Origin: a virus
Length of the DNA stretch: 64,000 bases
Reading direction: 5' to 3' (one strand)
Virus record (IMG/VR): IMGVR_UViG_3300025087_000048
Location: 30,224 to 94,223 of that record
Shown in pieces: positions 50,043-59,604 of this stretch. A model generated the notes under the pieces. That model saw nothing but the letters and a program-made list of their open reading frames with translations. It ran no database searches and was not told the origin of the DNA. Each line of letters starts with the position of its first letter. Position 1 is the stretch's first letter. The position numbers and the translations under genes were made by a program.

Positions 50043-50478
50043 AACAGAGACACAAATTCTTGAAACAGAAGTACGAAGATTATATCGAGACCAACCAGAT
50101 ATATGCAAAAGGGTTCTCAATCACAAACTAGGAGTTGATCACTACATTCATGGCATGATAGTGCATACTATTCCTGTGTGGATACACACTGCCGATTTTA
50201 TACATCCAAGACGAGTGGCTCTCGGAATGGTTAACGGAATCTGGACTCTATGTGTTGCACCAAAATACACCAACACTGAAGCTCCGGAATTCAAAGACAC
50301 GCCCTGGAATGACGAAGGGTCGCTCATTCATCTATCAAGCGTGGTGAGTAGCGGAGAAAATGGACGATTAAACACAATTTTATTTGCAGTAAACATGTCT
50401 GAAAAGGCGTGGTTAAAATTTAAGAAACAGGAACCAACATGTCTTGCCGTCTTATACCCCCGGAACCTGAACTATTAA
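50023..50478 (+). CDS. hypothetical protein
   Basis: Fills the gap; TAATG coupling to the helicase. Confidence 0.5.
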   Translation: MSRQILKTETQILETEVRRLYRDQPDICKRVLNHKLGVDHYIHGMIVHTIPVWIHTADFIHPRRVALGMVNGIWTLCVAPKYTNTEAPEFKDTPWNDEGSLIHLSSVVSSGENGRLNTILFAVNMSEKAWLKFKKQEPTCLAVLYPRNLNY

Positions 50479-51590
50479 TGGCTCCGATCCCTCCGGCACA
50501 AGAACATCGTGCATTGGTCTGGCTTTGGTCTGCTTCGGCTCTATTTCCAGATATTTTGGAACAATTTCCACAGGACATCCTTTCGGAAGAAGGCCGGCAA
50601 TGGCTTACATGCATGCGTGAATTCCCGACCACCCCATTGGGAAGTTCACCGGCATCAGAACAGGAAGGACGTACATATTTTCGCACACAACTTCTTGCAC
50701 ATTTAGCCAAAGAAGCTGCAAAAGCACAGAAAAATGGGTCGCTTGACAGAGTCTATCGTGCTGTCGAATTTCTTGACACGTTTACTACGGCCATCTCTCC
50801 TCCACCTGTCGTTGCATACGATCTTGCTATTCCACAAGTGCGCTCAGTCATTCCAACAGGAATTGAACCCATAGACCAACAAATTCGTGGCCTTGCTGTT
50901 GGAGAACTTGGCATTATTTTTCTTCCTCCTGGGCGTGGTAAAACACAAATGCTTATTAATTTTACTGACACCGCGCTACTTCTCGGGAAGGATGTTTTAT
51001 ATCTTACAATTGCGGACCAATCAAAGGATGAACTGATTCCTCGGATTGATACATGTATCCTGGGAACCCCATGTCCAGCCGAAGCAACCGCAGACGTGTT
51101 ATTGGAACGACATCAACGGGCAAGCCAGCAACGAACAGGCCGTCTGTGGGTTGCCGACTACACAGATCGGGCCTGTGACATTCAGGATATTGAACGAACT
51201 ATTCAACATTGTGCATCAGACCTCATCATCGTTGACCACGCGGATGATGTGTTGTCTCCGTACGCCACAGATCCGACAGCCACTCGGCACAGTCTCAGAG
51301 TTGTCTACCTCGCACTCAAGAAGCTTTCCGTGCGGTACAATGTTCCCATCTGGACTGCAAGTCAATCACCTGAAGCTTCGTGGAACTTCAGAGACACAAG
51401 TATTTCTGATATGGCTGAGGCCAAGGTGGGGAAAGCCACTGGAGCAGCAATTATTCTAGGATTTTCCGGTGGGCCTATTGCCCAACAGGTTCCAGGGGTC
51501 ATGTACTGTTCCATTGCCAAGGCACGGCGATGGTTCACAGAACGGAATTTCCCGCTTCGATACGATCATGAGGTCTGTCGAATATGGTAA
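50478..51590 (+). CDS. DnaB-like (SF4) replicative helicase
   Basis: IPTG...ID....GL..GEL, PPGRGKT, LIIVDHAD, PIWTASQ, AKAR. Confidence 0.88.
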   Translation: MAPIPPAQEHRALVWLWSASALFPDILEQFPQDILSEEGRQWLTCMREFPTTPLGSSPASEQEGRTYFRTQLLAHLAKEAAKAQKNGSLDRVYRAVEFLDTFTTAISPPPVVAYDLAIPQVRSVIPTGIEPIDQQIRGLAVGELGIIFLPPGRGKTQMLINFTDTALLLGKDVLYLTIADQSKDELIPRIDTCILGTPCPAEATADVLLERHQRASQQRTGRLWVADYTDRACDIQDIERTIQHCASDLIIVDHADDVLSPYATDPTATRHSLRVVYLALKKLSVRYNVPIWTASQSPEASWNFRDTSISDMAEAKVGKATGAAIILGFSGGPIAQQVPGVMYCSIAKARRWFTERNFPLRYDHEVCRIW

Positions 51591-52291
51591 CCCCTTGGCA
51601 TTGGCAACAGTACCAACGACCGTCGCACACAATCAAAGTTCCAAAATCTCCAACGGCACTCCCGCCTGAAGCAGTTCCTGCGTGGGTACACCCACGCGGA
51701 CGTGCCTATCTTAAAGAACGCGGGCTCACCAAGGATGAATCGGAACGCTATGATCTTCACTTCTGCGATGGTGGAGTGTGGTCGCAGCGCCTCATTATTC
51801 CGATGTACGTGAACGACATTCTCGTTGCCTTCCAGGGGCGTGATGTCACAGGAACCGATCCGGGACGATACAGGACAGAGGGACCACGTCCCATTTATTG
51901 CCCAGTCCAACCAGACACGCACGCTCCAGGCCCGCTTGTCATTGTGGAGGGTCCATTCGATGCCTTTGCTGTCCTACGAACCTATACGGCTGTCGCCACC
52001 CTTGGCATCTATCCGAGCTCCGCCCAAATAGAAACGCTGATTCAACTCGTGTCCGCATATCACATACCAGTGACGTATGTGTGGTTTGATAACACAGCGA
52101 CCGGAGAAGCCTGCGCATTACAGCTTCAACTGACTCCGCACATCCCCACATTCGTCATTGTCGATGAACAACAGAAAGATCCAGGAGAATACCTATGTCA
52201 CACTCCGGCCAACGCTCTTGGAGACGTTATTTCCCGTCAGGGTTTTCACCAGCCACCCCAGCCAAACCACCATATAAGACCCACTCGTTGA
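51584..52291 (+). CDS. DNA primase (TOPRIM), no N-terminal Zn-binding domain
   Basis: YLKERG, RLIIP, FQGR, VEGPFDA, WFD, KDPGE. Confidence 0.88.
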   Translation: MVTPWHWQQYQRPSHTIKVPKSPTALPPEAVPAWVHPRGRAYLKERGLTKDESERYDLHFCDGGVWSQRLIIPMYVNDILVAFQGRDVTGTDPGRYRTEGPRPIYCPVQPDTHAPGPLVIVEGPFDAFAVLRTYTAVATLGIYPSSAQIETLIQLVSAYHIPVTYVWFDNTATGEACALQLQLTPHIPTFVIVDEQQKDPGEYLCHTPANALGDVISRQGFHQPPQPNHHIRPTR

Positions 52292-52617: not shown

Positions 52618-53442
52618 GTGGCAAAAAAACACGTTGATCCCGAAGCTATTGGACCCGGGAAATGTCGGCTGTGCCCTCGATATCAACATGCACAGTCTAT
52701 CTGTCTCCCGGGACGTGGGTCAGTGGCCCCAAACTATATCGTAATCTTGGGATACCCGTCGCACGTTGATGATACGTGGTGTCGTACCTGTGATCGCCCA
52801 GCAACAGACCGCTGCCGTCAAACAGACCATCACATTGGGCACATACTCAGTAACGCAGCAGGACATGCATTACGAAACGTTTTACTGAAGGCATCCATTG
52901 ACCCGAACACGGTATTTTACACCAGTGTCGTTCGTTGTGCCGGGAAGCCGCCTGGAATCGTACAGATTCGCCGATGCCGGGCATATCTTTTGGACGAACT
53001 CGCGGCACTTGATCTGTCCCGATGCCGTGGCATCATGCTCCTTGGAGACTCTGCGGTCCACGGAGTGTTGAACCACCCGTATCTCACAGTCAAGCACACA
53101 CGTCTTCGTGTGTTGAACCCCACGGCCCCCCCTTGGGGCCCACCTGTTCGTGCCACCTATTACCCTGTAGAGCTTCTCCTACGCCAATCTGGAGCCATCA
53201 CACAGACAGAGATGGTTGCTGACTTCCTGGACCTTCAGAAACCACGAGATCCAGTCATGCCAACCGCACCCTGGAATTCATCCATGTATGATTTACCGGC
53301 ACCTCAATTGCTTGGAATCGACCTTGAGTGGACACAACACGGAACGATTCGGTGCATCGGATTTTCAGACGGAGTCTGGAAGATGGTAGCTCAGAGTCAG
53401 GATATCCCAAGTTTTCTCCAATGGCTCGAAGAAGCTAAATAG
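52618..53442 (+). CDS. DNA polymerase N-terminal part: family-4 UDG-like domain plus 3'-5' exonuclease motif I
   Basis: C..C......C.PGRG, FYT.VVRC, I..CR.YL, LLG..A, TYYP; then LGIDLEW...IRCIGFSDG before the stop. Confidence 0.82.
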   Translation: MAKKHVDPEAIGPGKCRLCPRYQHAQSICLPGRGSVAPNYIVILGYPSHVDDTWCRTCDRPATDRCRQTDHHIGHILSNAAGHALRNVLLKASIDPNTVFYTSVVRCAGKPPGIVQIRRCRAYLLDELAALDLSRCRGIMLLGDSAVHGVLNHPYLTVKHTRLRVLNPTAPPWGPPVRATYYPVELLLRQSGAITQTEMVADFLDLQKPRDPVMPTAPWNSSMYDLPAPQLLGIDLEWTQHGTIRCIGFSDGVWKMVAQSQDIPSFLQWLEEAK

Positions 53443-53470
53443 TACATATCTCAGGAGGTAAGAAAAAACC

Positions 53471-53821
53471 ATGTTCACACGTCCTTACTACATCCTCAAA
53501 AATGGGAAACCTGTTCAAGAACAAGATGTTCTCAAATGGGCACAGTGGTTCGAAGCATTTTGAAAAGAACGAATAATAGAACAAACAAAAATCAAGCAAG
53601 GTAAGACAAAGTCGAAGGAGATCCTCGTATCAACTGTCTTCCTTAGCTTTGACCACAACTGGAGTCTCTCTGGAAAACCCATGCTATGGGAAACCATAGT
53701 GTTCAATGGTCCCAGCGACGGATATCGAGTACACTATACCAGCCTTGCGGCTGCAAAGAAAGGGCACGCAAAAACCGTTGAACAAGAACGACGAATCCTG
53801 GCGCGATTGACAATCAAATGA
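53471..53821 (+). pseudogene. conserved-looking phage ORF with one in-frame TGA (53561-53563)
   Basis: YIL.NG.PV...D...WA.WFE-*-...VSTVFL..DH...P.LWET.VF.G...A..GH; SD AGGAGG; ATGA coupling at the end. Confidence 0.7.
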
Positions 53822-54078
53822 ACGATCACCACTGGTCGGGCTGGCCGGGTGCATATTGTGTTGATTGTGGGATTGAAGATCAGACAGAAATCTGTCTGGC
53901 TGAACATGATGTCATTCTATATTGCACAAACGGACACTGGTTACCAGACGTCAACACACAATCTCCGGATGATTGTCCACACGATCAAACGCTCTGCTCT
54001 GATCACATCAACCCACCTTGTGCCGAACCTGGGTCCAACAGGCATAACCCGTATCAAAAGAAAGGAGAAAACCATTAA
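53818..54078 (+). CDS. Cys/His-rich hypothetical protein
   Basis: H.WSGWPGAYC.DCG.ED..E.C. Confidence 0.6.
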   Translation: MNDHHWSGWPGAYCVDCGIEDQTEICLAEHDVILYCTNGHWLPDVNTQSPDDCPHDQTLCSDHINPPCAEPGSNRHNPYQKKGENH

Positions 54079-54292
54079 AACAATGACCGGTGTTCGACTC
54101 ATTGTTGTCAGCAAAGAAGTTGCCACGTTCAACGATATAGATGCGCTACGAAAACGAATGCCAAGTAAAGAAGATTTTGATATGTTTGTAGTCTGGGATG
54201 TTGATCATCCTATTGACATGGCTTTCATATCTCTTCGATCCTACTTAGAAAAACAGGGTATCAACTGTAATGGAGAGGAAAAAAACTCATGA
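54074..54292 (+). CDS. hypothetical protein (ATT 54074 or ATG 54083 start)
   Basis: SD AAGGAG 6 nt before ATT. Confidence 0.45.
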   Translation: MKTMTGVRLIVVSKEVATFNDIDALRKRMPSKEDFDMFVVWDVDHPIDMAFISLRSYLEKQGINCNGEEKNS

Positions 54293-54570
54293 CATGGAAT
54301 TATCGCCTTGTATACCGGAAAGATGTTAAAACAACTCCAGGCGCTCGAATGGGCGTCTATGCAATCCACGAAGTGTACTACGATGACAACGGAAAACCAG
54401 ATGCTGTGACTCAAGACGCCATCAGTATCTGCGGGGAAACGATTAACGAGGTATGGACAGCTTATCGACAAATGTCAGAGGCATTCGCACAACCTGTTCT
54501 TGACTACAACACCAGAAGACCAATCAAAAATACTGCAAAGAAAGTAGTAATAAAAGGTAAAAAGAAATGA
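54289..54570 (+). CDS. conserved-looking phage hypothetical protein
   Basis: MTWNYR...IHEVYYD..G.P...T...M..A...PVL. Confidence 0.75.
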   Translation: MTWNYRLVYRKDVKTTPGARMGVYAIHEVYYDDNGKPDAVTQDAISICGETINEVWTAYRQMSEAFAQPVLDYNTRRPIKNTAKKVVIKGKKK

Positions 54571-54708
54571 ACAAATGCCGACACGAAAACTATAGTGCAT
54601 TTAATTACTGCGGAAAATGCGGAAAACACTTAAACACGATCTGCCGCTGTGGCGCTGTCATAGTGCACTCCGATACTTATTGCGTACATTGCGGGAGAAA
54701 ATGCACTC

Positions 54709-54975
54709 ATGAAAAAAGAACTGTGTGATACATGTTACGGCCGTGGATGCCCTGTCTGCCAGCCTGAAAGAGACTTCGAAGCAGAACTTGGAAATAAGGA
54801 TGCGCCTGAAGGACATGTCTATGTATGCTTGGCGTGCGGCAAACAATCAAAAGATAAATATGGATTCAAATCAATCACCCACGGCTGGGATGAATCCTGC
54901 ATGATGAACGCTGAGCTTCATCCCCTTGGAAAATGTATTATTGAACACGGACGTGTTGTCAAAATAAACGACTAG
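54709..54975 (+). CDS. Cys-rich hypothetical protein
   Basis: AP.G.VYVC.ACGK.S.D.YG...GWDESC..NA. Confidence 0.65.
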   Translation: MKKELCDTCYGRGCPVCQPERDFEAELGNKDAPEGHVYVCLACGKQSKDKYGFKSITHGWDESCMMNAELHPLGKCIIEHGRVVKIND

Positions 54976-54978
54976 ACT

Positions 54979-55437
54979 ATGGACGCTCTCATCGAGATGG
55001 CAAAAACAGACCACTATATTAAGAATTTCCTCAAACATTTTGGTCCAAAGCACCTCCGTGTACTCATTACAGGGGAACGCACATTCTCAAATAGTTATCC
55101 AATGTGGTTCCTTCTCTCGTATGTAAAAGAGATTTCTACACCACGTCCGACACTGATTCACGGGGCAGCCCGAGGAGCAGACACACTAGCCGCACACGTT
55201 GCGACGCTCCTCAAGTTCCATGTACGTGCCTACCCGGCGGACTGGACACGGTATGGACGAAGAGCAGGCCCGATTCGCAACCAGCAGATGTTCACAGAAG
55301 GAAAACCTGATCTTGTGATTGCCTTCTTTGTCAACCGTGAACATTCAAAGGGAACAAATCATATGGTTAAGATTAGCAAACGTGCTGGTCTTCCATGTAT
55401 TATTTGGGAGGAAAACAAAGGATGGACACTGGAGTAA
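54979..55437 (+). CDS. SLOG-superfamily (YspA-like) protein
   Basis: LIHG.ARGAD.LA, PADW..YG..AGPIRN.QM, PDLVIAF, GT.HM. Confidence 0.88.
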   Translation: MDALIEMAKTDHYIKNFLKHFGPKHLRVLITGERTFSNSYPMWFLLSYVKEISTPRPTLIHGAARGADTLAAHVATLLKFHVRAYPADWTRYGRRAGPIRNQQMFTEGKPDLVIAFFVNREHSKGTNHMVKISKRAGLPCIIWEENKGWTLE

Positions 55438-55651
55438 AATCTAAAATACGTACGTGTCTTGTCTGTTTCTTCTATGTCGAGTGGGAACGTGATTCACCAG
55501 TCAGTATCGGACACTGTCATCGGTATCCACCAACGGCAGACTCCGGCCAGTCAACGTATCCATTTATGCGAAATTATCCAGTTGAAAGATTTCCATTAGT
55601 GCCAGGCGATCTATACTGCGGAGAATGGAAATCAAAAGGAGAAAAAACAGA

Positions 55652-55897
55652 ATGAATACACGGGTACTCGATTGGAAAACCATGGTTGGAAAACGAGTTC
55701 TCTGTGGGAGCAAAGACACTCAAATTAGAGAGGCCATAGTCCAGGAAGTATCTGAATCGGGTAACTACGTAAAACTATCATCAGTTGTCATGCCACTCAG
55801 TTCAAGCAGACAGGCATACTGGCATGACAGACAAGATATTCACTTCCTTGAAGTCCTACCAGATCCTCTAAGATTCATCAAACAAGATGAAAAATAA
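55652..55897 (+). CDS. small SH3-like protein
   Basis: GKRVL...EA.V.EVS.SG.YVK...W.......LEVL. Confidence 0.55.
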   Translation: MNTRVLDWKTMVGKRVLCGSKDTQIREAIVQEVSESGNYVKLSSVVMPLSSSRQAYWHDRQDIHFLEVLPDPLRFIKQDEK

Positions 55898-55912
55898 TAG
55901 ACTCAACGCCCT

Positions 55913-55989
55913 GCCCCGCTATCCCAATCGGCAGAGGAATTGGTCTTAAAAACCAAAAAGTATGGGTTCGAATCCCATGCGGGGCACCA
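55913..55989 (+). tRNA. tRNA-Leu (TAA), short variable loop
   Basis: GCCCCGC/GCGGGGC, TTGGT-CTTAAAA-ACCAA, ATGGG-TTCGAAT-CCCAT, ACCA. Confidence 0.9.
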
Positions 55990-55994
55990 TACAT

Positions 55995-56082
55995 GCGAGA
56001 GTGCTTGGAATGGCAGACAGGCTGGATTCAAAATCCAGTGGGGGTTTCCCTCGTGGGGGTTCGAGTCCCCCCTCTCGCACCA
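55995..56082 (+). tRNA. tRNA-Leu (CAA)
   Basis: GCGAGAG/CTCTCGC, CTGGA-TTCAAAA-TCCAG, long variable arm, GGGGG-TTCGAGT-CCCCC, ACCA. Confidence 0.93.
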
Positions 56083-56409
56083 TGATATATTCAGTACGCG
56101 TACTGCGTGTGGCACGCGGTCACGGGGCATGTGAGTCCCCCGTGCTTTTTAGGACGGTCGGTTCCGACTTACAGCGAATCCGGCCAGCGAGCATATTCAC
56201 CACATATAGGAGAAAAGAAATAATGGCAAAAATATTTCTTACGCTAACATTTCTCGGCTGGTGGTTTCTTATGTCAGGGTGGCATCCAAAACAAATTGGT
56301 CCATTTGAATCACAGGAAATTTGCGATAAGGTACGTAATAACTATCTTACAGCAGGCAATATCTGCTGGTTCATAAAGCCAAACTGTTAATAGCTTATAG
56401 GAGGAATCC

Positions 56410-56670
56410 ATGGACGAACTGGCAAAGGCAATCACTGAATTAATCCGCACGGGTGCCCCGCTTGGAGCCACAGCTATACAGTGGTACTTTATTATACGTT
56501 TATCAGAACAAGTTCTAAATCTAGTCGCCATCCTCTCTGCATTTGGAACAGCGATCTTTATCTTCATCCGTATCCAAAACTATCTTCGTTGGATACGTAC
56601 AAAGGAAATGGAATCAGCTGATAGAAAAGGCCAACCATACGAAGCCCCACGTCACGGAGAGGGGTTTTAA
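56410..56670 (+). CDS. small membrane protein
   Basis: SD AGGAGG; TM helix. Confidence 0.55.
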   Translation: MDELAKAITELIRTGAPLGATAIQWYFIIRLSEQVLNLVAILSAFGTAIFIFIRIQNYLRWIRTKEMESADRKGQPYEAPRHGEGF

Positions 56671-56687
56671 TTCATTCATGCATGAAT

Positions 56688-56737
56688 GTGGCGGTAGCCT
56701 AACGGTAAGGCACGGGCCTGTGGAGCCCGCCACCCCA
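56688..56737 (+). pseudogene. tRNA-His (GTG) remnant lacking the T-arm
   Basis: GTGGCGG-TA-GCCT..AGGC-A-CGGGC-CTGTGGA-GCCCG joined directly to CCAC-C-CCA. Confidence 0.75.
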
Positions 56738-56754
56738 ATTTAACAGGAGGCGAT

Positions 56755-56958
56755 ATGCCAAAGTTTGGAAATCTGTATTGCACCAAATCTGGCAAGATAC
56801 GAAAGAGATTCTACAAGCATAACGACCTTGCAGACAAGGCAATGAAAGACCTTTACGCAATAGGGATTACGGCGGTTGCATTCTTTCCAGCTGAACGACG
56901 AGAAAAGAAGTTGTATAAAATCATGCATGATTTAGAAATAGAAACACCATCACCTTAA
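56755..56958 (+). CDS. small basic hypothetical protein
   Basis: SD AGGAGG. Confidence 0.55.
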   Translation: MPKFGNLYCTKSGKIRKRFYKHNDLADKAMKDLYAIGITAVAFFPAERREKKLYKIMHDLEIETPSP

Positions 56959-56961
56959 ATA

Positions 56962-57144
56962 ATGTCATCCAGTTCTCCGTCAGCTGTCATTACTATTGTC
57001 CTTCGTCGTGTCTATCGCCTGGGCTGTGTTGAAGTCGGTCCAGGATATGTTCGCCTTATTAATAAAACAAACGACACAACCGTGATCCTGACGCCGGAAC
57101 AAGAACAACGCTGGCGTGCTCGACTCTTGAGATCGAAACCGTAA
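56962..57144 (+). CDS. small hypothetical protein
   Basis: Fills the gap before the polymerase. Confidence 0.4.
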   Translation: MSSSSPSAVITIVLRRVYRLGCVEVGPGYVRLINKTNDTTVILTPEQEQRWRARLLRSKP

Positions 57145-57154
57145 GGAGATCCTC

Positions 57155-58762
57155 ATAGTCACACTGGTCGGGCATAATCTCATCTCAGACTTGAGCATGC
57201 TCATTCGAGCCGGGCACCCACTCCCCACGAATGTCAATTACTTTGATACCTACGTGGCAGCCCGTTGGGTGTGGCCCGACATGGATGACTATGGACTTGA
57301 GGCGCTCGCACTCCGCTCAACCAACATCGGACAGTGGCGAACCACCTTAGGAAAACTCGAGGCTGAAGACTTTGATGCCATGCCCGATGAACAGCTCTAT
57401 GAACGCTGCGGAGGGGATGCCCAAGCCCCCATCCTCCTCCAGCGCCTCCTTGCCCCCCAGATCGACGATCTCCACATGGGGGCCATCTGGACCCTCGCCA
57501 TGGATGTATTGCCCATCCTGGCCGAAATGGGGGGCCGTGGGATGGCGCTAGATCACCCACTGCTCGCCTCCTGGGCATCTGAAACGGAAAAATGGCTCCA
57601 ACAAGCAGAAGAATCATTGAAACAACGACTCAACGTGGACAATATTAACAGCGACATTCAAGTGGCAAAGACGCTGTATAGCCCACCATGGAAGGCAGAA
57701 CCCTTATACAAGAATCTCACAGGCTACAGCGTTGATAAACTCTCGCTCCTGTGGGCACGACACCAAGCCACTGGCACGAATCAAATGGAACTCATTCGCC
57801 TGTTGACGGATCTCCTTGAGTATCGAACAAAAGAGAAACTTCAATCGACATACTACATTCCATGGTTAAATAACAGCGATCATACACGTGTGTATTCAGA
57901 ATATTCATTGGGTGTGACTGCAACAGGACGGCTCTCCTCGAAACGGTTTAACCTTCAAAATGTGCCCGAGTCCGTACGAACGGCCATCATTCCATCCCCG
58001 GGGTACGACGATATTATTGCAGCAGATTATAATATGTTGGAATTGTGCGTGGCAGCAAATCGCTCGGAAGATCCACTCATGCTGAAATGGATTCGTGAGG
58101 GGCTCGATATTCATTCAATCATGGCAGCACGTGTGCTCGGATTGAAAGAACCTGCTACCAAAGAAGAAGGGAAAACATTCAAAGCACGCTATCCAATCGA
58201 ACGAGCAACCGGAAAATTAACAAATTTTGCAGTGATCTTCGGTATTAAAGCCAATTCATTAACATGGAAAATCTTCCAAGACACCGATGGCACAACTTGG
58301 ATTCCAGAAGCAGATATGCAGCAGTATATTGACACTTTTTTCTCTACTTTCTCCGGGTACCAAGCATATAGCGAATATGGACAACGTGAACTTGCTAATG
58401 GACACCCGGTTGTCAGCCCATTCAATCGACAGTGGTCATTCCCAGCCACGGAAGCCGGACATCGAAAGTGGCTCAACTACCCGACCCAGGCGACTGCATC
58501 GGATATTACACTCATTGCACTTAAAACAATTGACCATGAACTAAAAACACGCAAACTGAAAAGCCGTCTCATCGGGGAGGTGCACGATGCCATAGTCATT
58601 GAAAACCCACGGAAAGAACGACCTGAAGTCCTCCGCCTCGTCAAATCCATCTGTGAGAATCCTGATACTCGTGCGTTTGGATTCACCCTGAAAGTCCCCC
58701 TTCGCGTTGAATTGAAAGTGGGACCCAACTGGGGAACACTCAAGGAGGTAATAATTCAATGA
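57155..58762 (+). CDS. polA: family A DNA polymerase, C-terminal part (Exo II/III + polymerase)
   Basis: VGHNLISDL, FDT..AA, TATGRLSS..NLQN, ADYNMLEL, R..GKLTNFA.IFG, NYPTQ.TASD, VHDA; probable ATA start 6 nt after TAAGGAG. Confidence 0.92.
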   Translation: MVTLVGHNLISDLSMLIRAGHPLPTNVNYFDTYVAARWVWPDMDDYGLEALALRSTNIGQWRTTLGKLEAEDFDAMPDEQLYERCGGDAQAPILLQRLLAPQIDDLHMGAIWTLAMDVLPILAEMGGRGMALDHPLLASWASETEKWLQQAEESLKQRLNVDNINSDIQVAKTLYSPPWKAEPLYKNLTGYSVDKLSLLWARHQATGTNQMELIRLLTDLLEYRTKEKLQSTYYIPWLNNSDHTRVYSEYSLGVTATGRLSSKRFNLQNVPESVRTAIIPSPGYDDIIAADYNMLELCVAANRSEDPLMLKWIREGLDIHSIMAARVLGLKEPATKEEGKTFKARYPIERATGKLTNFAVIFGIKANSLTWKIFQDTDGTTWIPEADMQQYIDTFFSTFSGYQAYSEYGQRELANGHPVVSPFNRQWSFPATEAGHRKWLNYPTQATASDITLIALKTIDHELKTRKLKSRLIGEVHDAIVIENPRKERPEVLRLVKSICENPDTRAFGFTLKVPLRVELKVGPNWGTLKEVIIQ

Positions 58763-58974: not shown

Positions 58975-59604
58975 CCACTCCAGACTTCGTCACCATCCGC
59001 ACGCTCCTGGAAGCTGGGCGGGGGCTTTATCGGGGCCGATCGCACAGACTTTATTGCTGATTTGCCAGCTGCACATGTGAGGCCGTGGTCGAGCACGCGA
59101 AAGCAATGACGGCGTGGGCTCGTGCCCTTCCATCCGCTCAGGCGGCGCTGGAGCGAGTGGAGGCGAAGCATGCTGACTGCGTTGCCTGTATCGCCTATGA
59201 TGCCGTCTGTACCGGCAACTCCGTGCAGGCATTTCGTCTCAGCGATCTCCGAACCCGCATCGCCCGCCTGGAGGCGGCGCTGATAGCGGCAAGCTACGTC
59301 GTTGAGAAATTTGCCTCTATCGGCATCCGTGATGAAGCAACTGGCCAAACCGGCGAAGAGTTGATGACGCAGATCAACGTTGCCTTGGAGGGACGCGATG
59401 CCTAAGCCGCACCGACATATCTGGGTGGTCGAGATGCGCCTGGACGGACGATGGGAGTCAACGGTGGAAGGGAGCCTATCCCGTGATGCAGGTCGGACGG
59501 AAGTCCGGCACTGGCGCGAGGCGAACCCCGATGACCGCTTCCGACTCCGGCGCTACGTGCCGACAGAGGGGCGCGATGAGCGACAGAATAGACAAAGTAA
59601 AACA

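Follow-up and report, generated by a model that had tools for sequence, protein, structure and literature searches.

Two-piece phage polymerases are already known, both as family A enzymes cut between the exonuclease and the polymerase (T7-like cyanophages, LUZ24) and as the halves of family B enzymes (PhiKZ, Aeromonas phages). Split versions of gene 43 in T4-related Aeromonas phages were reportedly described by Petrov and colleagues in 2006, and the original work on the split nrdA of phage Aeh1 is said to be that of Friedrich and colleagues in 2007. The Aeh1 ribonucleotide reductase, with the order nrdA-a / mobE / nrdA-b, is presented as a case of "genes-in-pieces" in a later paper (Crona et al., 2011, PMC3045599). 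T7-like cyanophages of the S-SBP1 and S-TIP37 type (see also PMC12695635) have a PolA split between exonuclease and polymerase, the earliest such case according to Czernecki et al. (2023, PMC10201439). In the annotation of Pseudomonas phage LUZ24 (NC_010325) the polymerase is in three pieces (gp25, gp34, and gp36), separated by an island of eight small open reading frames (ORFs) that includes an endonuclease; the break lies at the exo/pol boundary, because gp25 holds all three exonuclease (Exo) motifs (YDLEGDG, VGHNILDYD, and YCLQD). In OM43 phages, too, the polymerase is split, and a small ORF is inserted (PMC10580990), and the two parts of the split B-family polymerase of PhiKZ, DNAP-N and DNAP-C, have been shown experimentally to form a 1:1 complex (PMC13648687). 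[quoted passage not shown] Here we describe, in a groundwater phage, a family A polymerase gene that is interrupted within its exonuclease domain. The gene lies in a 64,000-nucleotide stretch (hereafter the window) at the end of an IMG/VR virus record of 94 kb (IMGVR_UViG_3300025087_000048), of which it makes up the final 64 kb. We hold with good confidence that the locus reflects an old, clade-wide gene fission, by which a UDG-Exo-PolA replicative polymerase became a two-subunit enzyme with separately translated halves.

The N-half (52618..53442, plus strand, 274 amino acids (aa), GTG start) combines a family-4 UDG-like domain with the first part of a 3'-5' exonuclease fold bearing Exo I. Its UDG-superfamily domain was recognized in a Pfam scan (PF03167, E 2e-7), and the family profile matched the T. 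maritima family-4 UDG 1L9G when compared with the PDB (E 3e-20). An earlier reading made from the letters alone (the original prediction) had this ORF ending just past Exo I, and this is what we see: the C-terminus reads ...GIDLEW...IGFS...FLQWLEEAK* with a TAG stop at 53440-53442, and about 35 residues separate the D-L-E-W Exo I motif from the end. The C-half (57155..58762, plus strand, 535 aa) was likewise described correctly as beginning just before Exo II. It starts on the beta-strand that precedes this motif, with GHNLISD at its N-terminus, and continues through Exo III into an entire family A polymerase domain; the frame that follows an in-frame TGA at 57128 reads ...IVTLVGHNLISDL... and extends to 58762. 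C-half residues 146-535 correspond to positions 5-380/381 of PF00476 DNA_pol_A (E 3.4e-61, 207.7 bits against a cut-off of 34.3 bits), and the C-half family profile matches the Klenow fragment (E 1.6e-61) from chain residue 94 onward, on the GQNLKYD Exo II motif. No single polypeptide holds all the exonuclease motifs, as Exo I is on ORF 52618-53442 and Exo II and Exo III are on ORF 57155-58762, and for this reason the metal site of the exonuclease would be composite. D235 and E237, from the D-x-E of Exo I (D235-L-E237), would be contributed by the N-half, and the Exo II (N-x3-D) and Exo III aspartates by the C-half, where Exo III reads RCGGD (57404-57418, C-half residues R84-D88, or R92/D96 in the numbering of alignment A1). 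The Exonuclease model PF01612 did not match the phage's own record even at E 0.1, because a split, divergent exonuclease domain falls below the model, and this null is uninformative as to a second exonuclease.

Remote single-chain proteins with the order UDG, exonuclease, and PolA exist (P0144, P0145, P0147, and others; 21-33% identical), and on these intact enzymes the two halves abut and are colinear, so that they do read as one continuous protein, as had been claimed. On P0144 the N-half covers residues 3-215 and the C-half 243-679, and on P0158 the corresponding ranges are 13-227 and 251-766. The joint multiple alignment places the split junction in a short loop before the xIGHNxxFD strand, with no residues missing and none added. 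As the termini abut in this way without spare residues, there are neither intein halves nor added "clasp" peptides at the new ends. The label "SPO1-like" in the original prediction is apt for the domain architecture but not for sequence kinship with the SPO1 or N4 polymerases, as the N-half had no match at E 1e-5 in a tblastn search of 50,697 phage records and the C-half finds its best matches among phages in the Pol I enzymes of actinophages, at ~28% identity.

The same division is found throughout a clade of relatives. Protein searches covered collections of 5.8 billion proteins (for the C-half) and of 1.84 billion proteins; the former returned 25 C-half relatives (43-100% identity, 493-588 aa), after which the next matches were bacterial Pol I at 32% identity or less, and no full-length relative above 32% identity was present in either collection. 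Apart from a few truncated or mis-called starts, these 25 homologues begin M-x-x-VGHxLxSDL, with the start 2-4 residues before VGHxLxSDL. Stand-alone N-half homologues (~20 representatives of 245-386 aa, from an exhaustive HMMER search) have a common end ~35 residues past DLEW, and single-chain forms first appear in that search at E ~2e-8 or weaker. Two overlong N-half hits were recovered, neither of them a polymerase fusion; the first is interrupted by a LAGLIDADG intein in its UDG domain, and the second has a UDG domain only, behind an unexplained N-terminal extension of ~350 residues. A quick maximum-likelihood tree groups all split forms in a single clade with a long stem, at a Shimodaira-Hasegawa-like approximate likelihood ratio test (SH-aLRT) value of 100. 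A metagenome scan gave 26 related loci, while a single-protein scan of viral contigs found no relative and an alignment scan of viral contigs gave only relatives of at most 30% identity, which were not used. The N-half lies upstream of the C-half in all eight related contigs with enough upstream sequence, at distances of 248 bp (L087), 392 bp (L097, L099), 430 bp (L092), ~1150 bp (L091, L093), 1233 bp (L105), and 2090 bp (L086); the window's own gap measures 3715 bp. Judged from these comparisons, the split appears to be old and fixed, in a clade whose members are as little as 43% identical.

The catalytic residues have been kept on both sides of the break. Exo I D235, E237, and W238 are invariant in 22 sequences, among N-half relatives that are 36-61% identical. 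The Exo II Asp is retained in every relative covering the position (the Asn varies, with G, H, S, or E in its place) and the Exo III Asp (D96 in alignment A1 numbering) is invariant in the split clade, retention having been checked in C-halves that are 43-88% identical. The N-half has a ratio of nonsynonymous to synonymous substitution rates (dN/dS) of 0.095 (L097 vs. L099), with 0.146 in its exonuclease tail (window vs. L082), and the C-half has one of 0.118 (window vs. L082), with 0.03-0.07 in the first 40 codons. With values of ~0.1 for each, both halves are under purifying selection and thus still in use.

Co-folding of the two halves, with family alignments for both chains, gave an interaction prediction score from aligned errors (ipSAE) of 0.81 in three of three runs, compared with 0.33 for the best of three controls. 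This mark is reached by 58 of 80 solved complexes and by 2 of 110 mismatched pairs, counts that hold only roughly here because the analysis used its own alignments. The partner's predicted local distance difference test (pLDDT) score is at least 86, and at least 95% of contacts agree across runs. In the model, the first strand of the C-half (10-15) pairs with the Exo I strand of the N-half (231-234), and Exo III D96 of the C-half touches Exo I D235 of the N-half. The co-fold passes its controls. The two chains are thus modeled as completing one DnaQ fold. As intact Pol I structures are solved, the result may reflect likeness to them, and the model speaks to completion of a fold rather than to binding in the cell. 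The heterodimeric polymerase with a two-chain exonuclease site, as first suggested in the original prediction, is therefore supported by colinearity, a fixed break, linkage, catalytic residues, dN/dS, and, at the level of a model, the co-fold. We propose that the cut falls within the DnaQ-like proofreading fold, between the part that bears Exo I (its first three strands and helix) and the strand leading to Exo II. The 274-aa and 535-aa products would be translated separately, each ORF having its own stop and start at the sequence level, and would assemble non-covalently by beta-sheet complementation into an active enzyme, without an intein, an intron, or "clasp" peptides.

Several relatives suggest how the gene may have come to be divided. 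An HNH_3 endonuclease ORF lies directly before the C-half in L091 (E 2e-8), L093 (E 1e-12), and L090 (E 9e-9), with 35-45% identity among these three ORFs and between them and a short ORF in L095. The latter is probably a fragment of the same HNH family (E 5e-8 to L091); the gap ORF of L101 has no Pfam match and is not counted as an endonuclease. That homologous endonucleases occupy one and the same break, although the polymerases of their carriers share only ~50% identity, points to fission mediated by an endonuclease, which we consider the most likely cause, although repeated homing to the break site would also explain the shared endonuclease. The fission would have occurred by insertion of a free-standing HNH homing endonuclease gene, still present at the break in several relatives, and the gap would afterwards have served as an insertion hotspot, in the window losing the endonuclease and receiving 3.7 kb of cargo (small ORFs, two tRNA-Leu genes, and a decayed tRNA-His). 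Which came first, the endonuclease or the fission, is a matter of inference. The content of the gap is hypervariable and differs even among close relatives. L103, whose C-half is 97% identical over the 173 residues covered, has most but not all island ORFs in common with the window, in mosaic synteny, and L096 and L101 (~90% identical) have entirely different genes beside the C-half. Genes for tRNA-Leu(CAA), tRNA-Leu(TAA), and tRNA-His are also present within the gap of close relatives. A conserved small ORF (MTDIE.EIL.RF...), which the window does not have, lies directly 3' of the N-half in the diverged relatives L091 (1189-1542) and L092 (2925-3350), at 34% identity.

The start of the C-half is unusual. 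A strong Shine-Dalgarno sequence (AAGGAG, 57143-57148) is followed by a 6-nt spacer and a putative ATA initiation codon at 57155-57157 (57143..57157, plus strand). Directly 5' of the C-half is a 60-aa ORF (56962..57144, plus strand), 83-92% identical to its copies in L082, L103, and L084, whose TAA stop overlaps the Shine-Dalgarno sequence (TAAGGAG). In L082 and L103, as in the window, AAGGAG stands 6 nt upstream and overlaps the stop of this preceding ORF. The codon aligned with ATA 57155 is ATG in L084, L096, and L101, ATC in L082 and L103, and ATG, GTG, or TTG in more distant relatives. The 12 codons from ATA 57155 to the first canonical start, TTG 57191, are protein-identical to those of L082 and L103 and differ by synonymous changes only. 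From the conserved codons, the upstream AAGGAG, and the start codons of the relatives, we conclude that the C-half is most likely initiated at a near-cognate AUA, perhaps with termination-reinitiation coupling to the 60-aa ORF. A prfB-like +1 frameshift from the 60-aa ORF into the C-half was also considered and rejected, as the Shine-Dalgarno sequence overlaps the stop and does not precede it, and as the relatives start with ATG, GTG, or TTG at this position. The apparent ATA or ATC start of an essential replicase subunit is a minor further oddity of the locus.

The UDG-like domain (52618-53250) has features of its own. Most clade members have family-4 motifs (ExP..., G.PLVGPAGQ, and YHPAA) together with a Cys-rich insertion, W-C-R-x-C...C...H. 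In the window the motif-A Glu and the motif-B His are replaced (GYPS and YYP vs. ExP and YHP in the clade), and the domain is therefore probably inactive here, with a structural role. In the N-half homologue P0141 (654 aa) a LAGLIDADG intein lies within the UDG domain, so that mobile elements have invaded this polymerase family a second time, independently. On the side of the C-half, polymerase motif C (58607-58615) is H-D-A in the window and H-D-S, within IGEVHD, in most of the clade, where Pol I-type enzymes usually have H-D-E.

A number of points weigh against a functional two-chain polymerase born of an endonuclease insertion. As the window's gap has no endonuclease (none was found in Pfam scans of the island ORFs), the case for this origin is drawn from relatives, and their endonucleases could be later squatters. 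The contigs of these relatives come only from groundwater, soil, and sediment metagenomes and most are short, with the longest, those of P0006 (85 kb) and P0018 (96 kb), left out. The Tyr of the Exo III motif Y-x3-D, present at this position in most intact UDG-PolA relatives, is an invariant Arg in 25 of 25 split-clade sequences, and for this reason proofreading may be weakened or may follow a chemistry other than that of the classical DEDDy type. Nor does the C-half have a canonical start codon before Exo II, and if translation began at TTG 57191 or ATG 57197 this phage would lose Exo II. Taken with the replaced UDG residues of the window, the change in Exo III and the irregular start are what could be expected if the halves no longer cooperate, with a proofreading-deficient C-half and an N-half that is now a decaying relic or a UDG-like protein acting alone. 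We regard this as unlikely. Across relatives as divergent as those given above, the Exo I Asp and Glu and the Exo III Asp do not vary and the Exo II Asp has been retained, and this conservation argues against the loss of proofreading that the original prediction had listed as an alternative. The exonuclease tail of the N-half evolves at a dN/dS of 0.146 and the codons before TTG 57191 have changed only synonymously. Moreover, the halves are linked on every contig able to show linkage, the co-fold is predicted to complete one fold, and the exonuclease domain is reportedly needed for PolA stability (PMC10201439).

Another explanation is that the halves are joined after transcription or translation to give a single chain, by a group I or II intron, trans-splicing, a split intein, or ribosomal bypass. 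Introns and inteins are common in phage polymerase genes, and the intein of P0141 shows that such elements visit this family. Nonetheless, joining is very improbable at this locus. Between 52000 and 59500 an Rfam search at E up to 1 revealed no group I or II intron, only tRNAs and one sub-threshold match, and neither half has a Pfam intein domain or, when compared with intact homologues, any spare residues that could be intein halves; the absence of intron and intein hallmarks at the junctions noted in the original prediction is thereby borne out, and the RNA-level joining that it had kept as an alternative loses its footing. The gap consists of independent ORFs with their own ribosome-binding sites and of tRNA genes, spans 0.25-3.7 kb, and varies in content among relatives, whereas the N-half stop and the C-half start stay at constant places across the clade.

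A split layout produced by faulty assembly, or by a chimera between two phages, would be in keeping with a metagenome-assembled viral contig whose island has a GC content slightly below that of the polymerase ends, but the chance of this is negligible, as misassembly, which had been named as a possible refutation, is excluded by independent contigs that bridge both junctions. Contigs of four public runs, three of which were not flagged as a possible source, match the stretch with no differing letters, indels, or joints. The junction between the N-half and the island (53442/53471) is bridged by X15 record 6 and X19 record 23, and that between the island and the C-half (57155) by X15 record 9, X17 record 18, and X19 record 27. 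At least 89% of the sampled words of the stretch are held by 20 public runs from 13 studies (groundwater, soil, and sediment). The same island-to-C-half junction is present in L103, from another sample, at ~84% nucleotide identity, and eight relatives have the same split layout.

The interval between the halves, a cargo island of ~3.7 kb (53443..57154, plus strand), contains ~13 co-directional small ORFs, together with two tRNA-Leu genes and a truncated tRNA-His, in agreement with the intervening ORFs and three tRNA or tRNA-like genes first noted. Its GC content is 0.43-0.48, compared with 0.51-0.56 in the flanking polymerase ends. Pfam scans identified a double zinc ribbon ORF (54567-54728, plus strand) and a YspA/SLOG-family protein (54979..55437, plus strand; PF10686, E 2.9e-11), of which L103 has an 80% identical copy. 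The genes for tRNA-Leu(TAA) (55913..55989, plus strand; 61 bits in Rfam) and tRNA-Leu(CAA) (55995..56082, plus strand; 45.6 bits) were both called by ARAGORN. The tRNA-His(GTG) remnant (56688..56737, plus strand) has no ARAGORN call and scores 28.3 bits in Rfam, just under the 29-bit threshold; in alignment with the intact genes of L103, L096, and L084 it has lost 23 nt, including the T arm. A 116-codon small ORF at 53471-53821 has a single in-frame TGA (53561-53563, TTT TGA AAA), which may be a recent nonsense mutation or else a stop that is read through or recoded. A scan for promoters and terminators gave counts near the shuffled expectation, with no convincing terminator in the island. Downstream of the polymerase, the sub-threshold Rfam match is to c-di-GMP-I (59333-59405). 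The split gene is set in a co-directional replication module, with a helicase, a primase-like protein, and a small ORF upstream. The DnaB-like replicative helicase (50439..51590, plus strand) matches PF03796 DnaB_C at E 6.6e-7, and the Toprim-type primase-like protein (51584..52291, plus strand) is matched weakly by Toprim and Toprim_2, which at E 2e-4 to 4e-4 narrowly miss the Pfam cut-offs.

If the polymerase is indeed a two-subunit enzyme, it is a natural test of the tolerance of the DnaQ fold to fragmentation and could be of use in split-polymerase engineering. It also serves as a warning for annotation, as PolA genes that appear to be "exo-less" may have a short partner kilobases away, and the hypervariable gap would be an endonuclease scar becoming a cargo hotspot inside an essential gene. 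A bolder proposal, which we put forward tentatively and with considerable doubt, is that the break is a long-lived "landing pad" at which the half-genes act as homology arms and endonuclease activity drives fast swapping of cargo between co-infecting phages, with the AUA or AUC start coupled to the upstream cargo and a two-chain, Arg-for-Tyr variant of proofreading. Were this true, tRNAs, the SLOG protein, and small host-takeover ORFs would be exchanged at a much higher rate than other parts of the genome, the amount of polymerase would depend on island expression through coupling of the start codon to the last cargo ORF, and the composite DEDD site with Arg for Tyr would constitute a distinct two-chain variant of proofreading.

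How does this locus compare with the systems already described? The split nrdA of Aeh1 (PMC3045599) resembles the arrangement that we propose here, with an essential phage replication-related gene cut into two separately translated ORFs at a free-standing HNH-type endonuclease gene and an enzyme rebuilt from its fragments without RNA or protein splicing. In contrast to Aeh1, the target is a family A polymerase, the cut passes through the proofreading active site and is fixed in a deep clade (to 43% identity), and the window's endonuclease is gone, with 3.7 kb of other cargo in its place. The interaction domains of the Aeh1 enzyme are reported to derive from the mobile element (PMC3045599), whereas no interaction peptides have been added at the new termini here. 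Like the S-SBP1 and S-TIP37 type of cyanophage, this phage has a family A polymerase in two genes whose products are predicted to re-form the enzyme. However, the cyanophage cut lies between a complete exonuclease domain and the polymerase domain, and the present one within the exonuclease, between Exo I and Exo II, so that, unlike in the cyanophages, the carboxylates are split between chains, the small subunit has a UDG-like domain, and an island of genes separates the halves. LUZ24 is the nearest match to this "island between the halves" layout, but it has neither a UDG domain nor tRNAs in the gap. PhiKZ also builds its replicative polymerase from two gene products, in a complex that has been shown there and is predicted here, but the PhiKZ and Aeromonas gene 43 enzymes belong to family B and have other break points. 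The order of family-4 UDG-like, 3'-5' exonuclease, and family A polymerase domains is that of the single-chain UDG-PolAs (N4-like cluster 17, SPO1, SP-10, and SP-15; PMC10201439, PMC13697223), and the UDG catalytic residues are degenerate in the window as in the N4-like enzymes; unlike the split halves, these UDG-PolAs are single polypeptides, and their sequence similarity to the window's halves is remote. Full-text literature searches returned no description of a break between Exo I and Exo II in any family A polymerase. Compared with these known systems, the new features of the locus are the site of the cut, a small subunit bearing a UDG domain, fixation across a whole clade, and a cargo island that carries tRNA genes.

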